NCBI RefSeq assembly: GCF_044454585.1
Contig: NZ_JBITDX010000004.1
Coordinates: 240,766-304,765, forward strand
DNA from: Catenuloplanes sp. NPDC051500
Lineage (GTDB): Bacteria; Actinomycetota; Actinomycetes; Mycobacteriales; Micromonosporaceae
DNA length: 64,000 nt
Direction: 5' to 3'
Both the position numbers and the translations under genes were made by a program. The notes under the pieces are model-generated. The model was not told the origin of the DNA. It saw only the letters and a list, made by a program, of their open reading frames with translations, and searched no databases. Below, piece after piece: positions 40,762-58,590 of the stretch. Every line of letters begins with the position of its first letter. Within the stretch, counting starts at the first letter, position 1.

Positions 40762-41408
40762 ACCCCGTTCGCGTGCTCATCGTCGACGACGACCCGCTGG
40801 TCCGCGGCGCGCTCACCATGATGCTCGACGGCGCCGGCGAGATCGTCGTGGTCGGCGAGGCCGCGGACGGCGCCGCCGCGATCACCGCTGTCGACCGGCA
40901 CGCCCCCGACGTGGTCCTGATGGACATCCGCATGCCCGGACTGAGCGGCATCGCGGCCACCAGGCGCCTGCGCGCCCGCCCCCGGCCACCCGAGATCATC
41001 GTGCTCACCACGTTCGACACGGACGACCACATCGTCCGCGCGCTCCGGGCCGGCGCCGGCGGTTTCCTGCTCAAGGACACCCCGCCGGACCGGATCGCCG
41101 CCGCCGTCCGCGCCGCCGCGGCCGGCGAACCAAGCCTCTCCCCGTCCGTCGCCCGCCGCCTGATGCACCAGGTCGCCACCGGCGCCGCCGACTACGAACG
41201 CGCCCGCGCCACCCTCGCCGCCCTCACCCCACGCGAACGCGACGTCGCCCTGGCCATCGCCCACGGCAGCGCCAATGCGGACATCGCCGCCGCCCTCGAC
41301 ATGAGCCTCACCACGGTCAAGGCCCACGTCTCCCACATCCTCACCAAACTCGCCCTCACCAACCGCACCCAGATCGCCCTCCTCGCCCACGACGCCGGCC
41401 TCATCTAG
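40758..41408 (+). CDS. NarL/LuxR-family response regulator
   Basis: VLIVDDDPLVRGAL...VVLMDIRMPGLSG receiver and a LuxR HTH. GTGA overlap with the kinase stop. Confidence 0.85.
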   Translation: MNPVRVLIVDDDPLVRGALTMMLDGAGEIVVVGEAADGAAAITAVDRHAPDVVLMDIRMPGLSGIAATRRLRARPRPPEIIVLTTFDTDDHIVRALRAGAGGFLLKDTPPDRIAAAVRAAAAGEPSLSPSVARRLMHQVATGAADYERARATLAALTPRERDVALAIAHGSANADIAAALDMSLTTVKAHVSHILTKLALTNRTQIALLAHDAGLI

Positions 41409-41455: not shown

Positions 41456-41815
41456 CGATCAAAAGCTTTCTTCCCGCTCACGCCGTGGTGCGGCCCGCAC
41501 GCTCCCGCGGGCAACGGTCGGCCGCAGGCGGCCTCCCTTCCGGTTCCGCGGTTGGCCACCCCACGAGCCCTCACGCGCCGCGCACGTCCTCCCTGCGGTG
41601 GTGGCGTGGCCCGGCTGACTCGTCGCCAGCAGCCCCGCGGCGGCTCCTCGACAACTGTGTGCGGTGACGGATTGAGCCGCGCCTGTGGGGTTTCGGCCAC
41701 GACGGGACCGGCTCGGAGCGACGTGCGGAGCGCCAGCGGAGCCCGGCGCGACGTTTGCCCGCGGGAGCATGCGGGCCGCACCACCGCGGAAGCGGGAAGA
41801 TCAAGATTTTGATCG
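41456..41815. mobile_element. MITE-like non-autonomous element (about 360 bp) with about 45-bp terminal inverted repeats
   Basis: Left end CGATCAAAAGCTTTCTTCCCGCTCACGCCGTGGTGCGGCCCGCA; the reverse complement of the right end is CGATCAAAATCTTGATCTTCCCGCTTCCGCGGTGGTGCGGCCCGCA. No credible ORF inside. Confidence 0.6.
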
Positions 41816-44782: not shown

Positions 44783-45425
44783 GACGACGGTACTGCTCGT
44801 GGACGACCAGGCGCTCGTGCGCGAGGGCATGGCGATGGTCCTCGGCCGGACACCAGGCCTGCGGATCGTGGGGGAGGCCGGCGACGGCCGCGCGGGCGTC
44901 CAGCTCGCCCGCCTGCACCGGCCGGACGTGGTCCTGATGGACGTGCGGATGCCGGTGCTCGACGGCATCGGGGCGACCCGCGAGATCGTGGCGCGGTGCC
45001 CGGAGACCCGGGTGCTCATCCTGACCACCTTCGACCTGGACGAGTACGCCTTCGACGGCCTGCGCGCCGGGGCGAGCGGTTTCCTGCTCAAGGACGCGAC
45101 CTCTGCCGACCTGGTGCGAGCGGTGCGTACGGTGGCGGCCGGCGAGGCGGTGGTCTCCCCCCGGATCACCCGTACGCTTCTGGACCACTACCAGGAGAGC
45201 CCCGCGAACCCGCCGGAGAGCGCTCGCCTGCTGGAGAGGCTGACCGGCCGGGAACGCGAGGTCCTCGTCGCCATCGCCGGCGGCCTGTCGAACGCCGAGA
45301 TCGCCGGCCGGCTCTTCCTCTCCGAGTCGACTGTGAAGACCCACGTGGGGCGGGTCCTCGCCAAGATCCAGGCTCGCGACCGGGTGCACGCCGTCATCTG
45401 GGCGCATCGGCACGGGCTCGCCTGA
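44775..45425 (+). CDS. NarL/LuxR-family response regulator
   Basis: VLLVDDQALVREGM...VVLMDVRMPVLDG, with a LuxR HTH at the C-terminus. Confidence 0.85.
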   Translation: MDETTVLLVDDQALVREGMAMVLGRTPGLRIVGEAGDGRAGVQLARLHRPDVVLMDVRMPVLDGIGATREIVARCPETRVLILTTFDLDEYAFDGLRAGASGFLLKDATSADLVRAVRTVAAGEAVVSPRITRTLLDHYQESPANPPESARLLERLTGREREVLVAIAGGLSNAEIAGRLFLSESTVKTHVGRVLAKIQARDRVHAVIWAHRHGLA

Positions 45426-45447: not shown

Positions 45448-46896
45448 CTATTCGGCGCAGACGGCGCCTTCCCGGGCCGGCGGGACGCCGTCGAGCAGGT
45501 AGCGGTCCACTTCCGGACGGCAGGCGCCGTAGACGTACGAACCGTGCCCGTTGCCCTCGCGGGTCAGCAGCCGGCCGTTCTCCAGGGTTGCCGCGGCGGA
45601 CTGTCCCCACTCGTAGAGCGCCGCCGGGTCACCGGTGCCGGCGATCAGCACGATCGGCACCGAGCCCTTGGCGGTGACCGGATGCGGGCGGGACACGCCA
45701 CCGTTCGGCCACTGCGGACACGGCGTGCCCGACATGACCTCCGGCCCGAACACCTGTCGTTCCCGGATCAGGGCGGCCCGGTCCGCCATGATCCGCGCCG
45801 CGCTGCGCCGGTCCGGCAGGTCCAGGCATTGGATCGCGTTGAACGCGATGCCGGTGTCGGGGTCCGGTGTGATGACGCTGTGGTCGCCGGCGCGCACGGC
45901 CGTGAACAGGCTGTCCAGCTCCGGGGCACCGGCCGGGTTGGACAGGTGCTCCTCCGTCAGGTTGACGAGCTGCAGCTGCTCGCCCGGATGCCGGTCGGCC
46001 GCCCGGAACAGCTCCGCCACCGCAGTCCGGCCCTGTGCCACGGTCGATCCGTGGAATGGGCAGCCGGCCCGGTCGTCGCAGGTGTCCAGGTAGGCGTCCA
46101 GACCCCGCTCCTCGCCCTTGGCCACGTCGGTGAGGAAGGCCTTGTTGTCCTGGGCCGGGTCGACGACCGCGTCAAGCACCATGCGCCCGACCCGGGTGGG
46201 GAACAGGTCCGCGTACCGCAGGCCGAGGCGGGTGCCGTAGGAGCCGCCGTAGTAGGAGAGCTTGTCGTCGCCGAGGACGGCGCGCAACACGTCGAGGTCC
46301 CGGGCGGCACTTACCGTGTCGACGTGATCGAAGATCGGCCCGGACTCGGCCCGGCACGCCCGCACCCAGCTCCTGACCGCCGCCTCCCGGGCGATCCGCT
46401 CGGCGAGGTCGTCCGGGGAGGCGTCCGAACTCCGGAACGCCGCGTCGGCCTCCGCCGGGCAGCTCAGCGGCGCGGACCCGCCCACCCCCCGAGGGTCGAA
46501 GCTGACCAGGTCGAACCCGTCGATCACCGGCCTGCTGAAGAAGCGCGCCGCGAACTCAAGGAACGGTTTCCCCGGTCCGCCCGGTCCGCCCGGATTGAGC
46601 AGCAGTGACCCCCGGCTGGTGCCGGTGGCCCGGTGCCGATGCACCTTTATCGTGATCGTCTGTCCCGCCGGGCGCGACCAGTCCACCGGGACTGTGACGT
46701 CTGTGCAGTCAAGCACCAGTCCGTGCTCGTCGTCGCAGGACGCCCAGGTGAGCGTCTGCCGGTAGAACCTGTCCGGGGTCTCCGCGGCGTTTGCAGCCGG
46801 CACACCCAGGCCCATCGTCAGGCCACCCACAAGCAGTGCTGCGGCGGTGTGTCGCCAGCCGGGACCGCGCGTCCGTCCATCAGATGTTCTCGTCAT
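45448..46896 (-). CDS. secreted alpha/beta hydrolase, S33 tripeptidyl-aminopeptidase (TAP) family
   Basis: Signal peptide (AAALLVGGLTMGLGVPAANA), then LLNPGGPGGPG and the nucleophile elbow YYGGSYGT. Confidence 0.8.
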   Translation of the reverse strand: MTRTSDGRTRGPGWRHTAAALLVGGLTMGLGVPAANAAETPDRFYRQTLTWASCDDEHGLVLDCTDVTVPVDWSRPAGQTITIKVHRHRATGTSRGSLLLNPGGPGGPGKPFLEFAARFFSRPVIDGFDLVSFDPRGVGGSAPLSCPAEADAAFRSSDASPDDLAERIAREAAVRSWVRACRAESGPIFDHVDTVSAARDLDVLRAVLGDDKLSYYGGSYGTRLGLRYADLFPTRVGRMVLDAVVDPAQDNKAFLTDVAKGEERGLDAYLDTCDDRAGCPFHGSTVAQGRTAVAELFRAADRHPGEQLQLVNLTEEHLSNPAGAPELDSLFTAVRAGDHSVITPDPDTGIAFNAIQCLDLPDRRSAARIMADRAALIRERQVFGPEVMSGTPCPQWPNGGVSRPHPVTAKGSVPIVLIAGTGDPAALYEWGQSAAATLENGRLLTREGNGHGSYVYGACRPEVDRYLLDGVPPAREGAVCAE

Positions 46897-50377: not shown

Positions 50378-50519
50378 GCTTCGGAGCCGCGACCGCTCCC
50401 GGATGCAAAAGATCGGCACAAAAAGAGTGCGCTACCGCACACCGTTTTTAGACCCGCCAGAGCCGCGCCTGGGCGACCACCGCGACGCGGGGTCTGGGGG
50501 TCGCTTCCAGGAAACTACC

Positions 50520-50601
50520 GTGGGCCGGACGTTGCACCATGCGAACCACCCGATCATCGTCACCGGCGACCCCACTGCCGGGACGTTTGGCCAGTTCAAG
50601 G
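50520..50601. repeat. direct repeat copy A (about 82 bp)
   Basis: gtgggccggacgttgcaccatgcgaaccacccgatcatcgtcaccggcgaccccactgccgggacgtttggccagttcaagg; about 85% identical to 51946..52027. Confidence 0.8.
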
Positions 50602-50662
50602 GGTACTCGACCAGCCCGATAGCCTGATTCAGACCCACCCTCAGCCGCCTCGGAGTGCTGCG

Positions 50663-51229
50663 CTACCAGGCCGGGGGACCAAGATGGCGTCGTACTTCAG
50701 CCGCGAATCTAGGTACGCCGGTGCGTTGCAGAAGGACGAGGACCTCCGGCACGGTGTTCGGCGCACGTCGGTAGGACGCGGCTTGGTGACGGAGCACGTC
50801 CATGGTCAAGCCGGGGTAGAGATCGAGTTGGTCGAGGAGGAAATCGTCGGGGTGGATGGCTGCGATGTCGTAGGGCTTGAGGGCCGGCTCGGGGAAGTCG
50901 CTGAGGTTGAAGGTGACGATGACTTCGGCGTTGGCGCGTACGGCGGCAGCCAGAACGTGTCGGTCCTTCGGATGGTTCGTCATACCGTCGACAAGTGACT
51001 CATAGCCAGTGACCAGGGCGTCGGGGAATGACCGGCTCATCTGGCCAAGCCGCCGATCAACCCGATCCGGTGGTAGCCCGCGCTTGGTGAGGTTGCGACG
51101 TAGTTCGGTGAAGACGTCGGCCGACCAGAGCGGCCGGTATGCGGAGGCTTCGGCGAGGCGAAGCAGGGTGTCGCACAGGTATGCCGGGTAGAGCACGCAG
51201 GTGTCAAGGAACGCGGGAAACGCCACCAT
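50663..51229 (-). CDS. PIN-domain toxin (VapC-like, about 190 aa)
   Basis: FLDTCVLYP at the N-terminus (first acidic residue), DRHVLAAA, TFNLSDF. Confidence 0.75.
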   Translation of the reverse strand: MVAFPAFLDTCVLYPAYLCDTLLRLAEASAYRPLWSADVFTELRRNLTKRGLPPDRVDRRLGQMSRSFPDALVTGYESLVDGMTNHPKDRHVLAAAVRANAEVIVTFNLSDFPEPALKPYDIAAIHPDDFLLDQLDLYPGLTMDVLRHQAASYRRAPNTVPEVLVLLQRTGVPRFAAEVRRHLGPPAW

Positions 51230-51238
51230 GACCGGCTG

Positions 51239-51709
51239 TCACCTCGACGGCGGTGAGTCGAGGGTGATCTCGTACAGGTCGTCGTCCTCGGCGTCGGCTG
51301 CCATCTGGTCCAGGGCGCGGCGGCGTTCGGTGCGGGTGCGTTCGGAGTAGTCGAGGATGTCCCGCAGCAGGACTCGTCGGTGCCGGCCGCGCAGGCTGTG
51401 CGGGATCTCGCCGTCGGTCAGCAGGCGGACCAGCGTAGGTCGTGAGATGTTGAGCAGGTCAGCGGCCTCTTGGGTGGTCAGCATCGTGTTGTGCGGGGCG
51501 ATCGAGATGGCCATGCCCTGGGACAGGGCACCGACGACGTCGCGCAGCAGTTCGTAGAGTTCGGCCGGGATGTCGAGCTGCGAACCGTCCGGGCCCACCA
51601 GCTTCGCTCGGGCGGGGGCCTCGGCGGCGGCCATACCCCGCGCGAAGCGCACCAGGTCGGCGGGGTTTTCAGGTGGCAGAACGGTCCGTTCACGCAGGGT
51701 GCTCGACAT
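51239..51709 (-). CDS. HTH_17 (excisionase/MerR-like) DNA-binding antitoxin partner
   Basis: LTTQEAADLLNISRPTLVRLLTDGEIP...GRHRRVLLRDILDY. A 9-bp gap separates it from the PIN gene. Confidence 0.7.
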   Translation of the reverse strand: MSSTLRERTVLPPENPADLVRFARGMAAAEAPARAKLVGPDGSQLDIPAELYELLRDVVGALSQGMAISIAPHNTMLTTQEAADLLNISRPTLVRLLTDGEIPHSLRGRHRRVLLRDILDYSERTRTERRRALDQMAADAEDDDLYEITLDSPPSR

Positions 51710-51945
51710 GAAGCCAGCATACCGCTATTCGAAAAATCCGAAAGCCGCTACGGCTTGGTGAAGCCCAGCGTGCGATAGCCGGGCATTCGGCGCTGCAGCG
51801 AGACAGCCAGGATCGGCGTCGCCGGGTCGTGCCGGCCACGATGGCAGATCGCCACGATCCCCGACGAACGCAGATCCACCTTCCGGAGCTCCACCAGCAG
51901 CCGACAACAGCGAATCGCCGGGCCGCGGTTCGCATGCAAGATCAA

Positions 51946-52027
51946 AGTGGGCCGGACGTTGCACCATGCGAACCACGCCACCATCGTCCCGGGCCGCCCA
52001 CTATCGGGACGTTTGACCAGCTCAAGC
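51946..52027. repeat. direct repeat copy B
   Basis: gtgggccggacgttgcaccatgcgaaccacgccaccatcgtcccgggccgcccactatcgggacgtttgaccagctcaagcg. Confidence 0.8.
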
Positions 52028-52125
52028 GTTAGACGCTAGCGCTCGGGGCCGTTGACCCCAACAACAGCGGGCTCACCCTCCATGCCGATAGTGGTACCGT
52101 ATTCAGTACCACTTCGGGAGGCATC

Positions 52126-52383
52126 ATGACGTCTGCGATCAGTGCCAGCGAGGCGCGCAAGTCCCTATTTCCACTCATCGAGCGTGTCAACGAGGACCAC
52201 ACCCCGATCGAGATCGTTTCCAAGCGGGGTAACGCCGTCCTGGTGAGCAAGGAGGACTGGGACTCGATCATGGAGACCAACTACCTGCTCCGATCGCCCG
52301 CCAACGCCAAGCGCCTCGTCGAGAGCGTCGAGCAGTGGCGAGCCGGCCGAGCCACCGAACGCGAGTTCGGCCCCGAGGAGTGA
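52126..52383 (+). CDS. yefM: YefM/Phd-family antitoxin
   Basis: SASEARKSLFPLIERVNEDHTPIEIVSKRGNAVLVSKEDWDSIMETNYLLRSP. Confidence 0.85.
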   Translation: MTSAISASEARKSLFPLIERVNEDHTPIEIVSKRGNAVLVSKEDWDSIMETNYLLRSPANAKRLVESVEQWRAGRATEREFGPEE

Positions 52384-52640
52384 AACTCAGCTGGACCGAC
52401 CACGCCTGGGACGACTACCTGTACTGGCAGACCCAGGACCGCAAAACCCTCAAACGCATCAACGCGCTGATCGCCGACATCAAACGCGACCCCGACGGCC
52501 AGGGCATCGGCAAGCCGGAGATCCTCCGAAACAACCTCGCCGGACTCCGGTCCCGTCGCATCGATGACGAGCACCGCATGGTGTACGCCGTCGAGCCCAG
52601 CGAGATCTCCATCATCTCCTGCCGATACCACTACGAGTAG
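52380..52640 (+). CDS. yoeB: YoeB/Txe-family toxin (mRNA interferase)
   Basis: LSWTDHAWDDYLYWQ...RINALIADIKRDP...GIGKPE...HRMVYAV...CRYHY. GTGA overlap with yefM. Confidence 0.85.
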   Translation: MKLSWTDHAWDDYLYWQTQDRKTLKRINALIADIKRDPDGQGIGKPEILRNNLAGLRSRRIDDEHRMVYAVEPSEISIISCRYHYE

Positions 52641-52661
52641 GTCAGGCCTTATCGTTGCTGC

Positions 52662-53799
52662 TCAGCGGCGTTTGGCGAACTCTGCCAAGCGCTCGCTGAG
52701 CGGGCTCACCCGTGGGCGCGGTGGCCGATCGAAGTAGCCCGGCTTGATCTCGCGCATCAGCGTCTCACCGTCCCGGTTCCAGTCGAACCGTGGCCTCTTC
52801 AACAGCCGCCGGAACACGACACTCGCCTTCTCGGGATCTCGAGCAGCCAGCCGGCGCAGGACCATCGGCTCCACACTGTCGTCCTCGATGTAGGACAGCG
52901 TCTGCTCGCGCCACCGGCGGCGCCGCAACAGGTCGGGGTTCGCGAACGCTTCCTCCAGGAGGCCGAACTCCGCGTAGAAGCCGAGTCCGTCCGTCTCGTC
53001 GTAGATCAGCGCAACCGTTTCCGCATCGGTCACCTCCGGCGGCAACGACATCGACACCGCCGGAGGGACGTCCTTCGGGTCCGGCCCGAGAACCGTGTTC
53101 ACGGCAGTAGGTGTAGTAGCCGTCGAGCCGCTCCTGTGCCTGTTCCCCCGGGACCACCAGAAGGTCGGTGCCGAAGAACTCGACGAACCGTGCCCGGTCA
53201 GCACGCTGATGCTTCCACGCCATTGCCATCTTGTCCGGGTTCCGGAACACCGCTTCCGGCGTACGCAAAGACATGTCCAGCGCGAGTCGATAGGCGATGT
53301 CCCGTTCGCTCCCGCGGAGAATCTGTACCGGCCCGCTCAGCATCCACTCGTCACCGACAGCGACCAGCCGGGCGATGATGAACGAGTGGCGCGGCATCTG
53401 CTTGAACACGGCCGGGCCCATGTTCGATCTAACCCGATAGGTCAAGTCGTCGACGAGGCTCTCCACCAGGAGCGCGGGCCCGTCCTTGCGCTGCACCTCG
53501 AACGGGCCCTGCACCACGTCGCGCCAGCCGAGCACCATCTCCCGTTCGGCCTCCGGCAGGTCCGGCCGGGCCTCGACGAACTGCTCCACCACCGTCCGGC
53601 CGTTCGCCAACCGGTGCTCCAGCACGAAACAGTCCCAGAGCAGCATCCACCGCTGCTCATCGGCGTCTTCGCGGCCGTTGCCGTACTGGGCCAGAAAACT
53701 CGACGCAGCCCGGTTGTAGCGGGGCTGCTGAGAAAACGCCACCAGCTCGCCCTTGAGGTCACCCGCCCGTCGGAGCAGCGCGGCATCAGACATCGACAT
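52662..53799 (-). pseudogene. hypothetical protein gene (about 380 aa) disrupted by a frameshift near 53090-53110
   Basis: Frame A (53799 to about 53080) gives a protein-like sequence up to ...ERLDGYYTY, then Arg/Gly-rich nonsense. Frame B becomes protein-like from ...NTVLGPDPKDVPP down to the stop at 52662. Confidence 0.45.
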
Positions 53800-53856
53800 A
53801 CCACCAACCTATGAGCTGCCGGAGTCAGACCGGCACGGGGTGCCTCGTTCGGGTGG

Positions 53857-55086
53857 TCAGTCGGTCAGATATCGAGCGAGGCGTTCGGCGTTGAGTCCCC
53901 GCATCGCGTCCTCCACGGCTTCCGAGTCGGAGAGATCGATACCACGGGCCGTCAGCTCCGCGGCGATCTGCTTGGCCGGACCCCACGCCGCCGTGTCGTC
54001 GAACGCCTCCTCGAACGCGGGAAGGAACGTGTCGACAGCCTCGATCACCGGACTGATCCATACCGGGTCGACCGCACGGTGTTCCAGGGCGTACCGGATC
54101 CAGCGTCGCAACACGTCCGGCAGCGCGGCACGCTGCTCAGCGTCCAGCGCCGCCTTGCGCGGCAACCAGTCGGCCAGGAACAAGCCGACCTGTCCTGGGC
54201 TCCAGCACAGCGGACCGCTGGTCATGTAGCCGGCACCGTAATCCAGGAACAGGTCGGCCAGCGACCTGGCGACCGTGTCGTCGGCCGGCGCGAATCCGTC
54301 CAGCAGTCGTTGCCGTTCCTCATCGTCCATCGGCTGCCAGTCACGGAAGTCCGGCAGGTACGGAAGGCATCGTGACCAGGCCATCGCCCGCAAGTCGAGG
54401 AAGTCCTCGTCATCGTGGCGGGGCCAGGTCATGTCCGTGGTCCGCAGCGCGTCCGCCAGCTCCGCCAGCGCCACCTCGACCGGGCACTCGACGGCCGGCA
54501 TCGGCACCTCGTCGGGCTCACGCAGCCGATCCCAGGTCTCCGCAGCCCCGGGCTGCAGTAACGCCAGCTTGTCGACCAGCACACCGCCGGCGAGGGAGAT
54601 CTGCGCCATCAACGTGTGCGGAGTCTGCCCGGCGAACTCGACGAACAGCACATGCTCGCTGTCCCAGACATCCACCGCTCGCCACGCCCGAACCGGCTCA
54701 AAGACAGGCGCCTCGAACCACGATGGCACAGGCTGACTCTCCGACAAGATCTCCAGGGTGCCATCCAGCATCGACCACTCACCAGGAGCGCCGACACGGC
54801 GCAGCGCCGCCACCGCGGCCAGCCCGTGCGGCAACGGCCGGGTCGACGCCCGGCCCACCACCTCCAGGTGGAACATCTTCTCCGGGTCACGCTCGCCGAG
54901 CCCCGCGGCCGACCATGCCGCGCCGAGCCACTCACTGGCCCACCGCTCCACCTCGAGCACACTGTCCTCGGACACGATCGTCACCGCGTCACGCATCAAC
55001 CGGTCCGACAGCCGCAACTCCCGCACCGGGCGCTGCGGACGCCTCGGCTTACCTCGTCCCGCGGGACGACCACGACTCTTAGGCAT
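53857..55086 (-). CDS. hypothetical acidic protein (410 aa)
   Basis: Protein-like composition with no recognisable motif. Start at Met-23 (MPKSRGRP). Confidence 0.5.
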   Translation of the reverse strand: MPKSRGRPAGRGKPRRPQRPVRELRLSDRLMRDAVTIVSEDSVLEVERWASEWLGAAWSAAGLGERDPEKMFHLEVVGRASTRPLPHGLAAVAALRRVGAPGEWSMLDGTLEILSESQPVPSWFEAPVFEPVRAWRAVDVWDSEHVLFVEFAGQTPHTLMAQISLAGGVLVDKLALLQPGAAETWDRLREPDEVPMPAVECPVEVALAELADALRTTDMTWPRHDDEDFLDLRAMAWSRCLPYLPDFRDWQPMDDEERQRLLDGFAPADDTVARSLADLFLDYGAGYMTSGPLCWSPGQVGLFLADWLPRKAALDAEQRAALPDVLRRWIRYALEHRAVDPVWISPVIEAVDTFLPAFEEAFDDTAAWGPAKQIAAELTARGIDLSDSEAVEDAMRGLNAERLARYLTD

Positions 55087-55186
55087 GTACCCATTTACCG
55101 CATTCAGCCCGGCACAACGCCCGAGCGACCCGCGGTTCGTGCAATGCCACATTCAACCAGCACGAACACGCAGGCCATGCGCAGAG

Positions 55187-55261
55187 TGGGGCCGGCGGGA
55201 CTCGAACCCGCACTGGAACGGACCTAAACCGTTTGCCTCCTGCCAATTGGGCTACGGCCCC
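55187..55261 (-). tRNA. tRNA-like gene with predicted anticodon UAG (Leu-decoding) but class-I architecture (5-nt variable loop, 3-bp D-stem); possibly an atypical or pseudo-tRNA
   Basis: Reverse complement GGGGCCGTAGCCCAATTGGCAGGAGGCAAACGGTTTAGGTCCGTTCCAGTGCGGGTTCGAGTCCCGCCGGCCCCa. It has a perfect 7-bp acceptor stem, a T-arm GCGGG-TTCGAGT-CCCGC and an anticodon arm AACGG-TTTAGGT-CCGTT. CCA is not encoded. Confidence 0.6.
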
Positions 55262-55391: not shown

Positions 55392-55868
55392 TCAGTCGAG
55401 GCCGAGGTCCTTGCGCAGCTTTGCCACGTGGCCGGTGGCCTTCACGTTGTAGAAGGCGTGCTCGATCCGGCCCTCCTCGTCGATCACGAATGTGGAGCGG
55501 ATGACGCCGACGACTGTCTTGCCGTAGAGCTTCTTCTCGCCGAAGGCGCCGTAGGCGGTGAGCGTCTCCTTCTCCGGGTCGGAGACCAGCGGGAAGGTGA
55601 GCGCGTCGTGTTCGCGGAACTTTGCGAGCTTGGCGGGGGTGTCCGGGGAGATGCCGACGACCTCGTAGCCGGAGCCCTTGAGTGACGCGAGCGAGTCGCG
55701 GAAGTCGCAGGCCTGCTTGGTGCAGCCGGGGGTCATGGCGCTTGGGTAGACGTAGAGGATGACCTTGCGTCCGCGCAGGTCCGATAGGGAAAACCGGTCT
55801 CCGGTGTCGGTCGGCAGGGTGAACGAAGGTGCGGTGTCGCCGGCGGCGAGACGGATGGCGTCGGTCAT
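55392..55868 (-). CDS. bcp: thiol peroxidase / peroxiredoxin Bcp
   Basis: YVYPSAMTPGCTKQAC (peroxidatic Cys in a TPGCT context). Internal ATG start at 55868. Confidence 0.85.
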   Translation of the reverse strand: MTDAIRLAAGDTAPSFTLPTDTGDRFSLSDLRGRKVILYVYPSAMTPGCTKQACDFRDSLASLKGSGYEVVGISPDTPAKLAKFREHDALTFPLVSDPEKETLTAYGAFGEKKLYGKTVVGVIRSTFVIDEEGRIEHAFYNVKATGHVAKLRKDLGLD

Positions 55869-58480: not shown

Positions 58481-58590
58481 CCAGTTCATCTTCCCGCTCA
58501 CGCGGTGGTCCGGCCCGCACGCTCCCGCGGGCACCGGTCGTCGCCCAGGGGCTCCTCCCTTCCGGTTCCGCGGTGGTCCAGGGGGACGGT
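58481..58590. mobile_element. partial (left-end) copy of the MITE-like repeat
   Basis: TTCATCTTCCCGCTCACGCGGTGGTCCGGCCCGCACGCTCCCGCGGGCACCGGTCG...CTCCCTTCCGGTTCCGCGGTGG is about 90% identical to 41465-41560. Confidence 0.6.

Follow-up and report, generated by a model that had tools for sequence, protein, structure and literature searches.

The tRNA gene and its fold

The window analysed here, which is the whole stretch of 64,000 nucleotides taken from Catenuloplanes sp. NPDC051500, holds one tRNA gene, located on the minus strand at positions 55187-55261 and measuring 75 nt from G1 to the discriminator A73. ARAGORN calls this gene tRNA-Leu(tag), at 55186-55261, and the Rfam family RF00005 matches it from 55261 to 55187 with 54.4 bits (gathering score 29, E 6e-9), covering 71 of 71 model positions. 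These two calls, together with a covariance model of the family to which the gene belongs (model R1, see below), define a complete type I tRNA-Leu(UAG) gene. An earlier note on this DNA, made from the letters alone, had already placed a tRNA with a UAG anticodon in this interval, and both programs confirm it, assigning it to the minus strand.

Read from 5' to 3', the first half of the gene comprises the 5' strand of the acceptor stem, GGGGCCG (55255-55261), whose pairing with 55188-55194 is seen in the sequence and in the covariation of the family; the dinucleotide UA, that is, U8 and A9, between the acceptor stem and the D arm; the D arm GCC-C-AAUUGGCAGG-A-GGC (55235-55252), delimited with alignments A1 and A2; a single A; and the anticodon arm AACGG-UUUAGGU-CCGUU (55217-55233), on which ARAGORN, the Rfam match and the covariation of the stem agree. 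The second half opens with the variable loop CCAGU (55212-55216), whose 5 nt are the hallmark of a type I tRNA, as judged from the sequence and from comparison with the family. It continues through the T arm GCGGG-UUCGAGU-CCCGC (55195-55211), which contains U54, U55, C56 and A58 and is defined by sequence and covariation, and ends, as read directly from the sequence, with the 3' strand of the acceptor stem, CGGCCCC, and the discriminator (55187-55194, with A73 at 55187).

The acceptor stem consists of seven perfect base pairs; it begins with G1-C72, is accompanied by A73 and lacks a G3-U70 pair. The D stem has 3 bp (GCC/GGC) plus a C13:A22 mismatch, and the enlarged D loop contains A14, G18 and G19. 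In the anticodon arm, a 5-bp stem carries a 7-nt loop in which UAG occupies 55226-55224 and is followed by G37, so that the register of the anticodon, which the earlier note had entertained as possibly offset, is correct. Its remaining structural description also holds in the sequence, namely the 7-bp acceptor stem, the T arm GCGGG-TTCGAGT-CCCGC, the 5-bp anticodon stem with the loop TTTAGGT, the 3-bp D stem with its enlarged loop, and the variable region of 5 nt, which was rightly considered a departure from the class II tRNA-Leu of textbooks. The same is true of the CCA end, which is not encoded, because the 3' flank of the tRNA reads C-T-C.

The nucleotides of the tertiary pair U8-A14 and those that build the elbow of the molecule (G18 G19 with U55 C56, and U54-A58) are all present, and they are invariant in alignment A2. 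All 20 scored stem pairs of the window tRNA are standard, and its score with the general Rfam tRNA model falls within the range given by ten orthologues (49.6-56.9 bits). With respect to the family consensus GCCCAAUUGGCAGAGGC, the D loop of the window copy has one extra G (GGCAGGAGGC). This extra G is also present in two Micromonospora loci (L061 and L107), in a Micromonosporaceae locus (L065), in Nocardioides (L102) and in locus L094 and, being common to several loci, it is to be regarded as a variant of the lineage and not as damage. Neither a sigma-70-like promoter nor an intrinsic terminator was detected near the tRNA by a scan that is not tuned to actinobacterial promoters, and this null result is therefore uninformative for actinobacteria.

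The cloverleaf was also examined in a covariation alignment of 44 family sequences. Standard pairs were found in 99.3% of the cells, versus 40-51% when the partners were slid by 1-3 columns. Changes on both sides had occurred in 14 of the 20 pairs, including every acceptor pair (7/7) and every pair of the anticodon stem (5/5), with the acceptor positions being paired in 99.7% of the cells across the family, and 500 shuffles yielded no covariation score as high as the observed one.

Model R1 was built from 43 family members, leaving out the window gene; with it, the window tRNA reaches 92.6 bits, and the match covers positions 1-75 of 75. Held-out family members retrieved by pattern obtain about 75-97 bits with this model, more diverged short leucine tRNAs from cyanobacterial and acidobacterial arrays obtain 46-78 bits, and the best tRNA of another specificity, an alanine tRNA, reaches 55.3 bits. 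The earlier note, which regarded the gene as anomalous, had named a comparison with isotype-specific covariance models as the check that would count against this view, and the outcome of that comparison is a confident leucine call with a normal score.

Genomic setting

At 130 nt upstream of the tRNA, and on the same strand, lies a gene for a bcp-type peroxiredoxin (AhpC/TSA; 55392-55868, minus strand; Pfam AhpC-TSA, 2.4e-37), with a cbiMNQO cluster beyond it. The bcp gene is a conserved syntenic partner of the tRNA, since it is found directly upstream of a short tRNA-Leu(tag) in seven other loci (L061, L107, L065, L038, L060, L033 and L102), belonging to two Micromonospora species, a Micromonosporaceae MAG, Jatrophihabitans, Nocardioides and two Actinomycetota MAGs. 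In three of these loci the cbi genes have been kept as well, and three carry the core housekeeping genes rdgB and rph downstream of the tRNA. The Bcp protein of the window shares 73-77% amino-acid identity with those of the closest syntenic loci, which are from Micromonosporaceae, and the nearest sequences to the tRNA itself are chromosomal orthologues (Allokutzneria, 93%; Micromonospora, 92%), versus 80-84% for the copies carried by phages. Taking into account that the linkage to bcp has been kept across several actinobacterial families, the tRNA is an old gene of the chromosomal core and not the cargo of an island.

The 3' side is of a different nature. A lineage-variable segment of lower GC content (50480-55186), delimited by composition, synteny and family searches, abuts the 3' end of the tRNA, with a drop in GC to 0.65-0.67 in the region from about 50 to 56 kb. 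The segment includes a PIN gene, a gene for an HTH protein of the excisionase family, small ORFs and two proteins without a family match, and none of the genes on this side of the window showed synteny with the related loci. Searches of the 3'-flank ORFs tested against Pfam, PHROGs, NCBIfam and PADLOC identified just the excisionase-family HTH protein and the PIN protein, with no integrase and no other known mobile-element or defence gene, and with the same four resources the 409/431-aa and 344-aa ORFs of this flank had no family match. In terms of sequence similarity, the product of the ORF at 53857-55152 (minus strand) shows 54-58% amino-acid identity to hypothetical proteins encoded on large Rhodococcus plasmids, and that of the ORF at 52765-53799 (minus strand) is about 40% identical to plasmid proteins from Rhodococcus and Pseudonocardia; in pROB02, the homologue lies a few kb from genes for a ParA-like ATPase, a DUF2637 protein and an IS110 transposase.

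The tRNA thus stands where conserved DNA gives way to variable DNA, a position in which tRNA genes are often found. The proposal of the earlier note that the gene signals the boundary of an island is consequently right in one respect, as the gene borders on a variable segment that differs in composition, and it does not extend to the tRNA being part of such an island, given the bcp linkage conserved across families.

Several repeats were seen in this region and elsewhere in the window. A direct repeat of about 100-125 nt is located at 50480-50610 and 51907-52030, with a 53-nt core that is 87% identical and similarity extending to both sides; its copies bracket the gene for the excisionase-family HTH protein (51239-51709) and the PIN gene, of the RSP_2648 family (50663-51229), and this HTH/PIN module may be an inserted or duplicated unit. 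Another direct repeat, of 52 nt and 94% identical, is found at 41469-41520 and 58489-58540, 17 kb apart, with one copy lying downstream of the gene for a response regulator and the second downstream of the cbi cluster; when folded, both of its strands did no better than shuffled controls. Finally, the segments 40895-41078 and 44912-45095, which are 75-76% identical and separated by 4017 nt, lie inside paralogous genes for two-component response regulators, indicating a duplicated sensor-regulator pair.

A family of short-arm leucine tRNAs

The distribution of this type of tRNA was studied by scanning one genome per species, in 185,579 species, with a pattern fixed solely at the D arm and the beginning of the T arm, the anticodon arm being left free and 22-52 nt being allowed where the variable region falls. 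The scan yielded at least 120 loci, and the spacing was short in every match listed; no long-arm version of the D arm appeared among the at least 120 matches listed, although a spacing of up to 52 nt was permitted. ARAGORN called a tRNA at 118 of 120 listed sites, the other two being situated within a few bases of the end of the locus, and the anticodon was a leucine one in all 118 listed tRNAs (taa 62, caa 32, tag 17, cag 6, gag 1).

These 118 listed tRNAs are 74-78 nt long and represent 103 distinct sequences. Their variable loop has 5 nt in 111 cases and 6 nt in the other 7, and is never long, CCAGU being the commonest version (47/118). The discriminator is A in all of them, and a full CCA is encoded in 22. 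Among the genome matches, the D arm and the beginning of the T arm are invariant in part because the pattern demands it; the phage and plasmid genes found by BLAST, which are independent of this pattern, show the same D arm. No type II leucine tRNA with which to compare the D arm was present within the loci fetched around the matches.

Since a single body is combined with five anticodons whose sole common property is leucine, the idea, put forward in the earlier note, that a mutated anticodon sits on a tRNA of some other identity can be discarded; with the anticodon left unconstrained in the search, all 118 relatives listed have leucine anticodons.

Position 37 varies with the anticodon, and among the listed members it is G after UAG (17/17) and A after UAA and CAA (94/94). 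In Staphylococcus aureus, m1G37 has been observed in tRNA-Leu(UAG) (PMC6297222). The G37 that follows UAG in the window tRNA fits the m1G37 of CUN readers, and it is presumably methylated.

The hosts are Actinomycetota of many orders, including, among others, Corynebacterium, Mycobacterium, Nocardia, Amycolatopsis, Micromonospora, Arthrobacter, Cellulomonas and Bifidobacteriaceae. Beyond those orders, the family was found in Acidimicrobiia, Planctomycetota, Acidobacteria, Rokubacteria-like MAGs and cyanobacteria. The absence of Streptomyces from the matches listed may be due to the pattern requiring U48, as the type I tRNA of Streptomyces coelicolor has C48.

When the 75 nt of the gene were compared by blastn with annotated phage genomes, 119 records were obtained, of which 108 correspond to Mycobacterium phages and the remainder to Gordonia, Streptomyces, Rhodococcus and Thermobifida phages; the phage records listed are annotated as tRNA-Leu in all but one case. 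Four phage genes that were inspected individually measure 74-76 nt and have the anticodon tag, three of the four being annotated as tRNA-Leu. Once aligned, the genes found by BLAST display an invariant D arm, a 5-nt variable loop ending in GUG, A73 and compensatory changes in the stems. Two bacterial records matched as well, with a short tRNA-Leu(caa) of Tsukamurella, placed beside an integrase gene, and a short tRNA-Leu(taa) of Nonomuraea.

The Tsukamurella gene is found on plasmid 5 of Tsukamurella tyrosinosolvens (L005, 2997-4276), where 13 nt separate the tRNA-Leu(caa) from the gene for a site-specific integrase that follows it, accompanied by HTH regulator genes, and this adjacency suggests that members of the family may serve as integration sites elsewhere. 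In Cylindrospermum sp. NIES-4074 (L075, 1815-4535), 26 tRNA genes form an array on one strand, in which the leucine tRNAs tag, gag, cag, taa and caa are all short (74-78 nt), and those for serine and tyrosine are long-armed. Two Acidobacteria MAGs (L085, 4396-4889; L089, 5956-6208) contain short leucine tRNAs in tandem (cag, gag, caa), with long-arm tRNA-Ser genes flanking them, which indicates that type I leucine tRNAs are not confined to the Actinomycetota. To judge from their sequences, short-arm leucine tRNAs with all five anticodons are common in actinobacteria, in several other phyla and in actinophages.

Proposed function and rival explanations

The product of the window gene is very probably a functional type I tRNA-Leu(UAG), with CUA as the codon it reads. 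This codon is rare, accounting for 13 of the 1410 leucine codons (0.9%) in 28 high-GC3 ORFs of the window. By analogy with the pattern of the family and with the precedent of S. coelicolor, the tRNA would be expressed, leucylated and modified. Thus, it would be transcribed from its own promoter or together with bcp, trimmed at its 3' end and provided with CCA by the CCA-adding enzyme. It would then be charged with leucine by a host LeuRS that tolerates a variable loop of 5 nt, an enzyme that does not read the anticodon and that, in actinomycetes, takes an armless tRNA-Leu provided that the 5-nt loop and U8-A14 are present. The window tRNA has kept the D arm typical of the short leucine family, with its 3-bp stem, its large loop containing AAUUGG, and the accompanying U8 and A14, as well as the elbow of G18 G19 with U55 C56 and A73. 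Once charged, the tRNA would read CUA and, probably by wobble, CUG. A type II tRNA-Leu(UAG) may coexist with it elsewhere in the source genome.

The earlier note had considered that the tRNA could be misacylated, and a mistranslating or hybrid molecule, in which a body foreign to leucine is charged by another synthetase and brings a wrong amino acid to CUA, would resemble the tRNA-ProX of Streptomyces. Such hybrids do exist in Streptomyces and Kitasatospora (PMC10404621), and a short variable loop is atypical for a bacterial tRNA-Leu. However, the body is used with leucine anticodons exclusively, of five kinds and in each of the 118 relatives listed, so that leucine alone is what they share; the whole short leucine family has conserved this same D arm; the acceptor end has G1-C72 with A73 and no G3-U70; and LeuRS has been proven to charge a body of this type (PMC6614811). 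A candidate of the ProX kind was likewise rejected on the basis of the neighbourhood, which consists of bcp and of proteins without a family match, with no synthetase domain among the neighbour genes tested. A mischarged hybrid is therefore very unlikely.

It is equally improbable that the gene does no decoding and marks the border of an island, either as a pseudogene or as what an integrative element has left of its att site. It is true that the gene abuts a lower-GC segment holding an excisionase-family HTH gene, and that the related tRNA-Leu(caa) of Tsukamurella is directly beside a site-specific integrase. Nevertheless, the window gene is of full length, with intact stems, a score with model R1 in the middle of the family range and a score with the general tRNA model inside that of its orthologues; moreover, no integrase was found among the ORFs tested and the 3' half of the tRNA has no second copy in the window. 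With regard to a duplicated att site, a search of the window with the 22-nt 3' end of the tRNA, allowing up to 3 mismatches, matched only the gene itself; blastn-short of the tRNA against the window gave as best hit a 13-mer at 45474-45486 (E about 0.05) that could not be extended; and nothing else in the window scored above 18.8 bits with model R1, even with the filters off.

A further possibility is that the gene is a redundant copy of phage or plasmid origin, acquired horizontally with the lower-GC segment and supplementing a type II tRNA-Leu(UAG) located elsewhere. The tRNA-Leu(tag) genes of actinophages (119 records) are compatible with such an origin, as are the mycobacterial clusters that hold a short-loop TAG copy beside a long-arm one (PMC6582537) and the 3' flank, with its lower GC and its genes with plasmid homologues. 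This explanation, unlikely as it is, can be considered somewhat likelier than misacylation, a changed identity, or a pseudogene or att remnant, but it is contradicted by synteny. The upstream genes, bcp and then cbiMNQO, are on the same strand as in Micromonospora and in other families, placing the tRNA on the conserved side of the junction; the closest sequences to the tRNA are chromosomal and not those of phages; and neither an integrase nor an att repeat was found in the ORFs and the sequence of the window that were tested. An accessory tRNA of phage or island type was also rejected in view of the conserved bcp on the 5' side in seven loci of several families.

Implications

The type I tRNA-Leu(UAG) gene of the window breaks a textbook rule, and yet it is an ordinary housekeeping gene of a kind already published. 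Its proper annotation is tRNA-Leu(UAG), with no need for a flag as suppressor, mischarged tRNA or pseudogene. Annotation models that are specific for each tRNA isotype may flag short-arm leucine tRNA genes as anomalous, and the spread of armless leucine tRNAs is broader than is stated in the literature found.

The chances are about even that armless leucine tRNAs are no rare peculiarity of Streptomyces and that the bcp-linked type I gene is the sole reader of CUA in this lineage and in the Micromonosporaceae. If so, LeuRS enzymes accepting an armless tRNA-Leu would be widespread, and the long arm would have been lost or replaced isoacceptor by isoacceptor. Short-arm leucine tRNAs also bear on the way in which LeuRS recognises its substrates and on antibiotics that target this enzyme, as well as on the question of which hosts are able to charge which phage tRNAs.

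Comparison with known systems

The class II tRNA-Leu, as represented by that of E. coli, shares with the window tRNA a leucine anticodon, A73, U8-A14 and the G18 G19 elbow. The E. coli tRNA-Leu also has a 3-bp D stem and a D loop of 11-12 nt containing AAUUGG. What is missing from the window tRNA is the long variable stem-loop (>10 nt) of class II, in the place of which there are 5 nt. The earlier note had taken genuine tRNA-Leu to be class II without exception, a rule that fails in actinobacteria, where the type I tRNA of S. coelicolor is a proven substrate of LeuRS (PMC6614811) and short-loop TAG genes occur in mycobacterial clusters (PMC6582537) and in more than 100 actinophage genomes.

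In S. coelicolor, Fan et al. 2019 (PMC6614811) described four type II leucine isoacceptors, including UAG, together with a type I tRNA-Leu(CAA) whose variable loop, ACAGC, has 5 nt. The single LeuRS of this organism leucylates both types, with a kcat/Km of 6.25 s-1 uM-1 for type I versus 14.2 s-1 uM-1 for type II, and the charging of the armless tRNA is conferred by the leucine-specific domain of the enzyme (PMC6614811). Leucylation of type I requires the 5-nt length of the loop and U8-A14, A73 not being needed, and the authors were unable to delete the type I gene (PMC6614811). By comparison, the LeuRS of E. coli charges type II tRNA-Leu only, and human mitochondrial tRNA-Leu(UUR) is not charged by the S. 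coelicolor enzyme (PMC6614811). In its sequence, the window tRNA has every feature that Fan et al. found necessary.

Other systems show a more partial resemblance. The type I tRNA-Leu of animal mitochondria also has a short variable loop, although it differs in its origin and in its rules of recognition. In the hybrid tRNAs of the ProX type, a proline body bears a non-proline anticodon, and the gene usually lies beside a ProRS-like gene (PMC10404621).

The accessory copies are closer. In Mycobacterium, Behra et al. 2019 (PMC6582537) reported that the variable loop of a cluster tRNA-Leu(TAG) is short and that of the core copy is long, as is normal. The short tRNA-Leu(tag) genes of phages and of mycobacterial clusters (PMC6582537) have, like the window gene, the D arm GCCCAAUUGGCAGAGGC of the family, a 5-nt loop, A73 and the anticodon UAG, and the same body is recognised in Mycobacterium phages Faith1 and DyoEdafos, Gordonia phage GodonK and Thermobifida phage P318. 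These copies are accessory and reside in tRNA arrays, whereas the window gene is single, chromosomal and linked to bcp, and has the extra G in its D loop.

The nearest precedent, according to its published features, is the type I tRNA-Leu(CAA) of S. coelicolor, with which the window tRNA has in common U8-A14, G18 G19, A73 and a 5-nt loop of the form xCAGy (ACAGC there, CCAGU here). They differ in the anticodon, which is CAA in S. coelicolor and UAG here, and at position 48, which is C there and U here. The UAG isoacceptor, which is of type II in S. coelicolor, is of type I in the window. The precedent comes from another genus and concerns the CAA isoacceptor, and the window gene is a conserved, bcp-linked copy carrying UAG.
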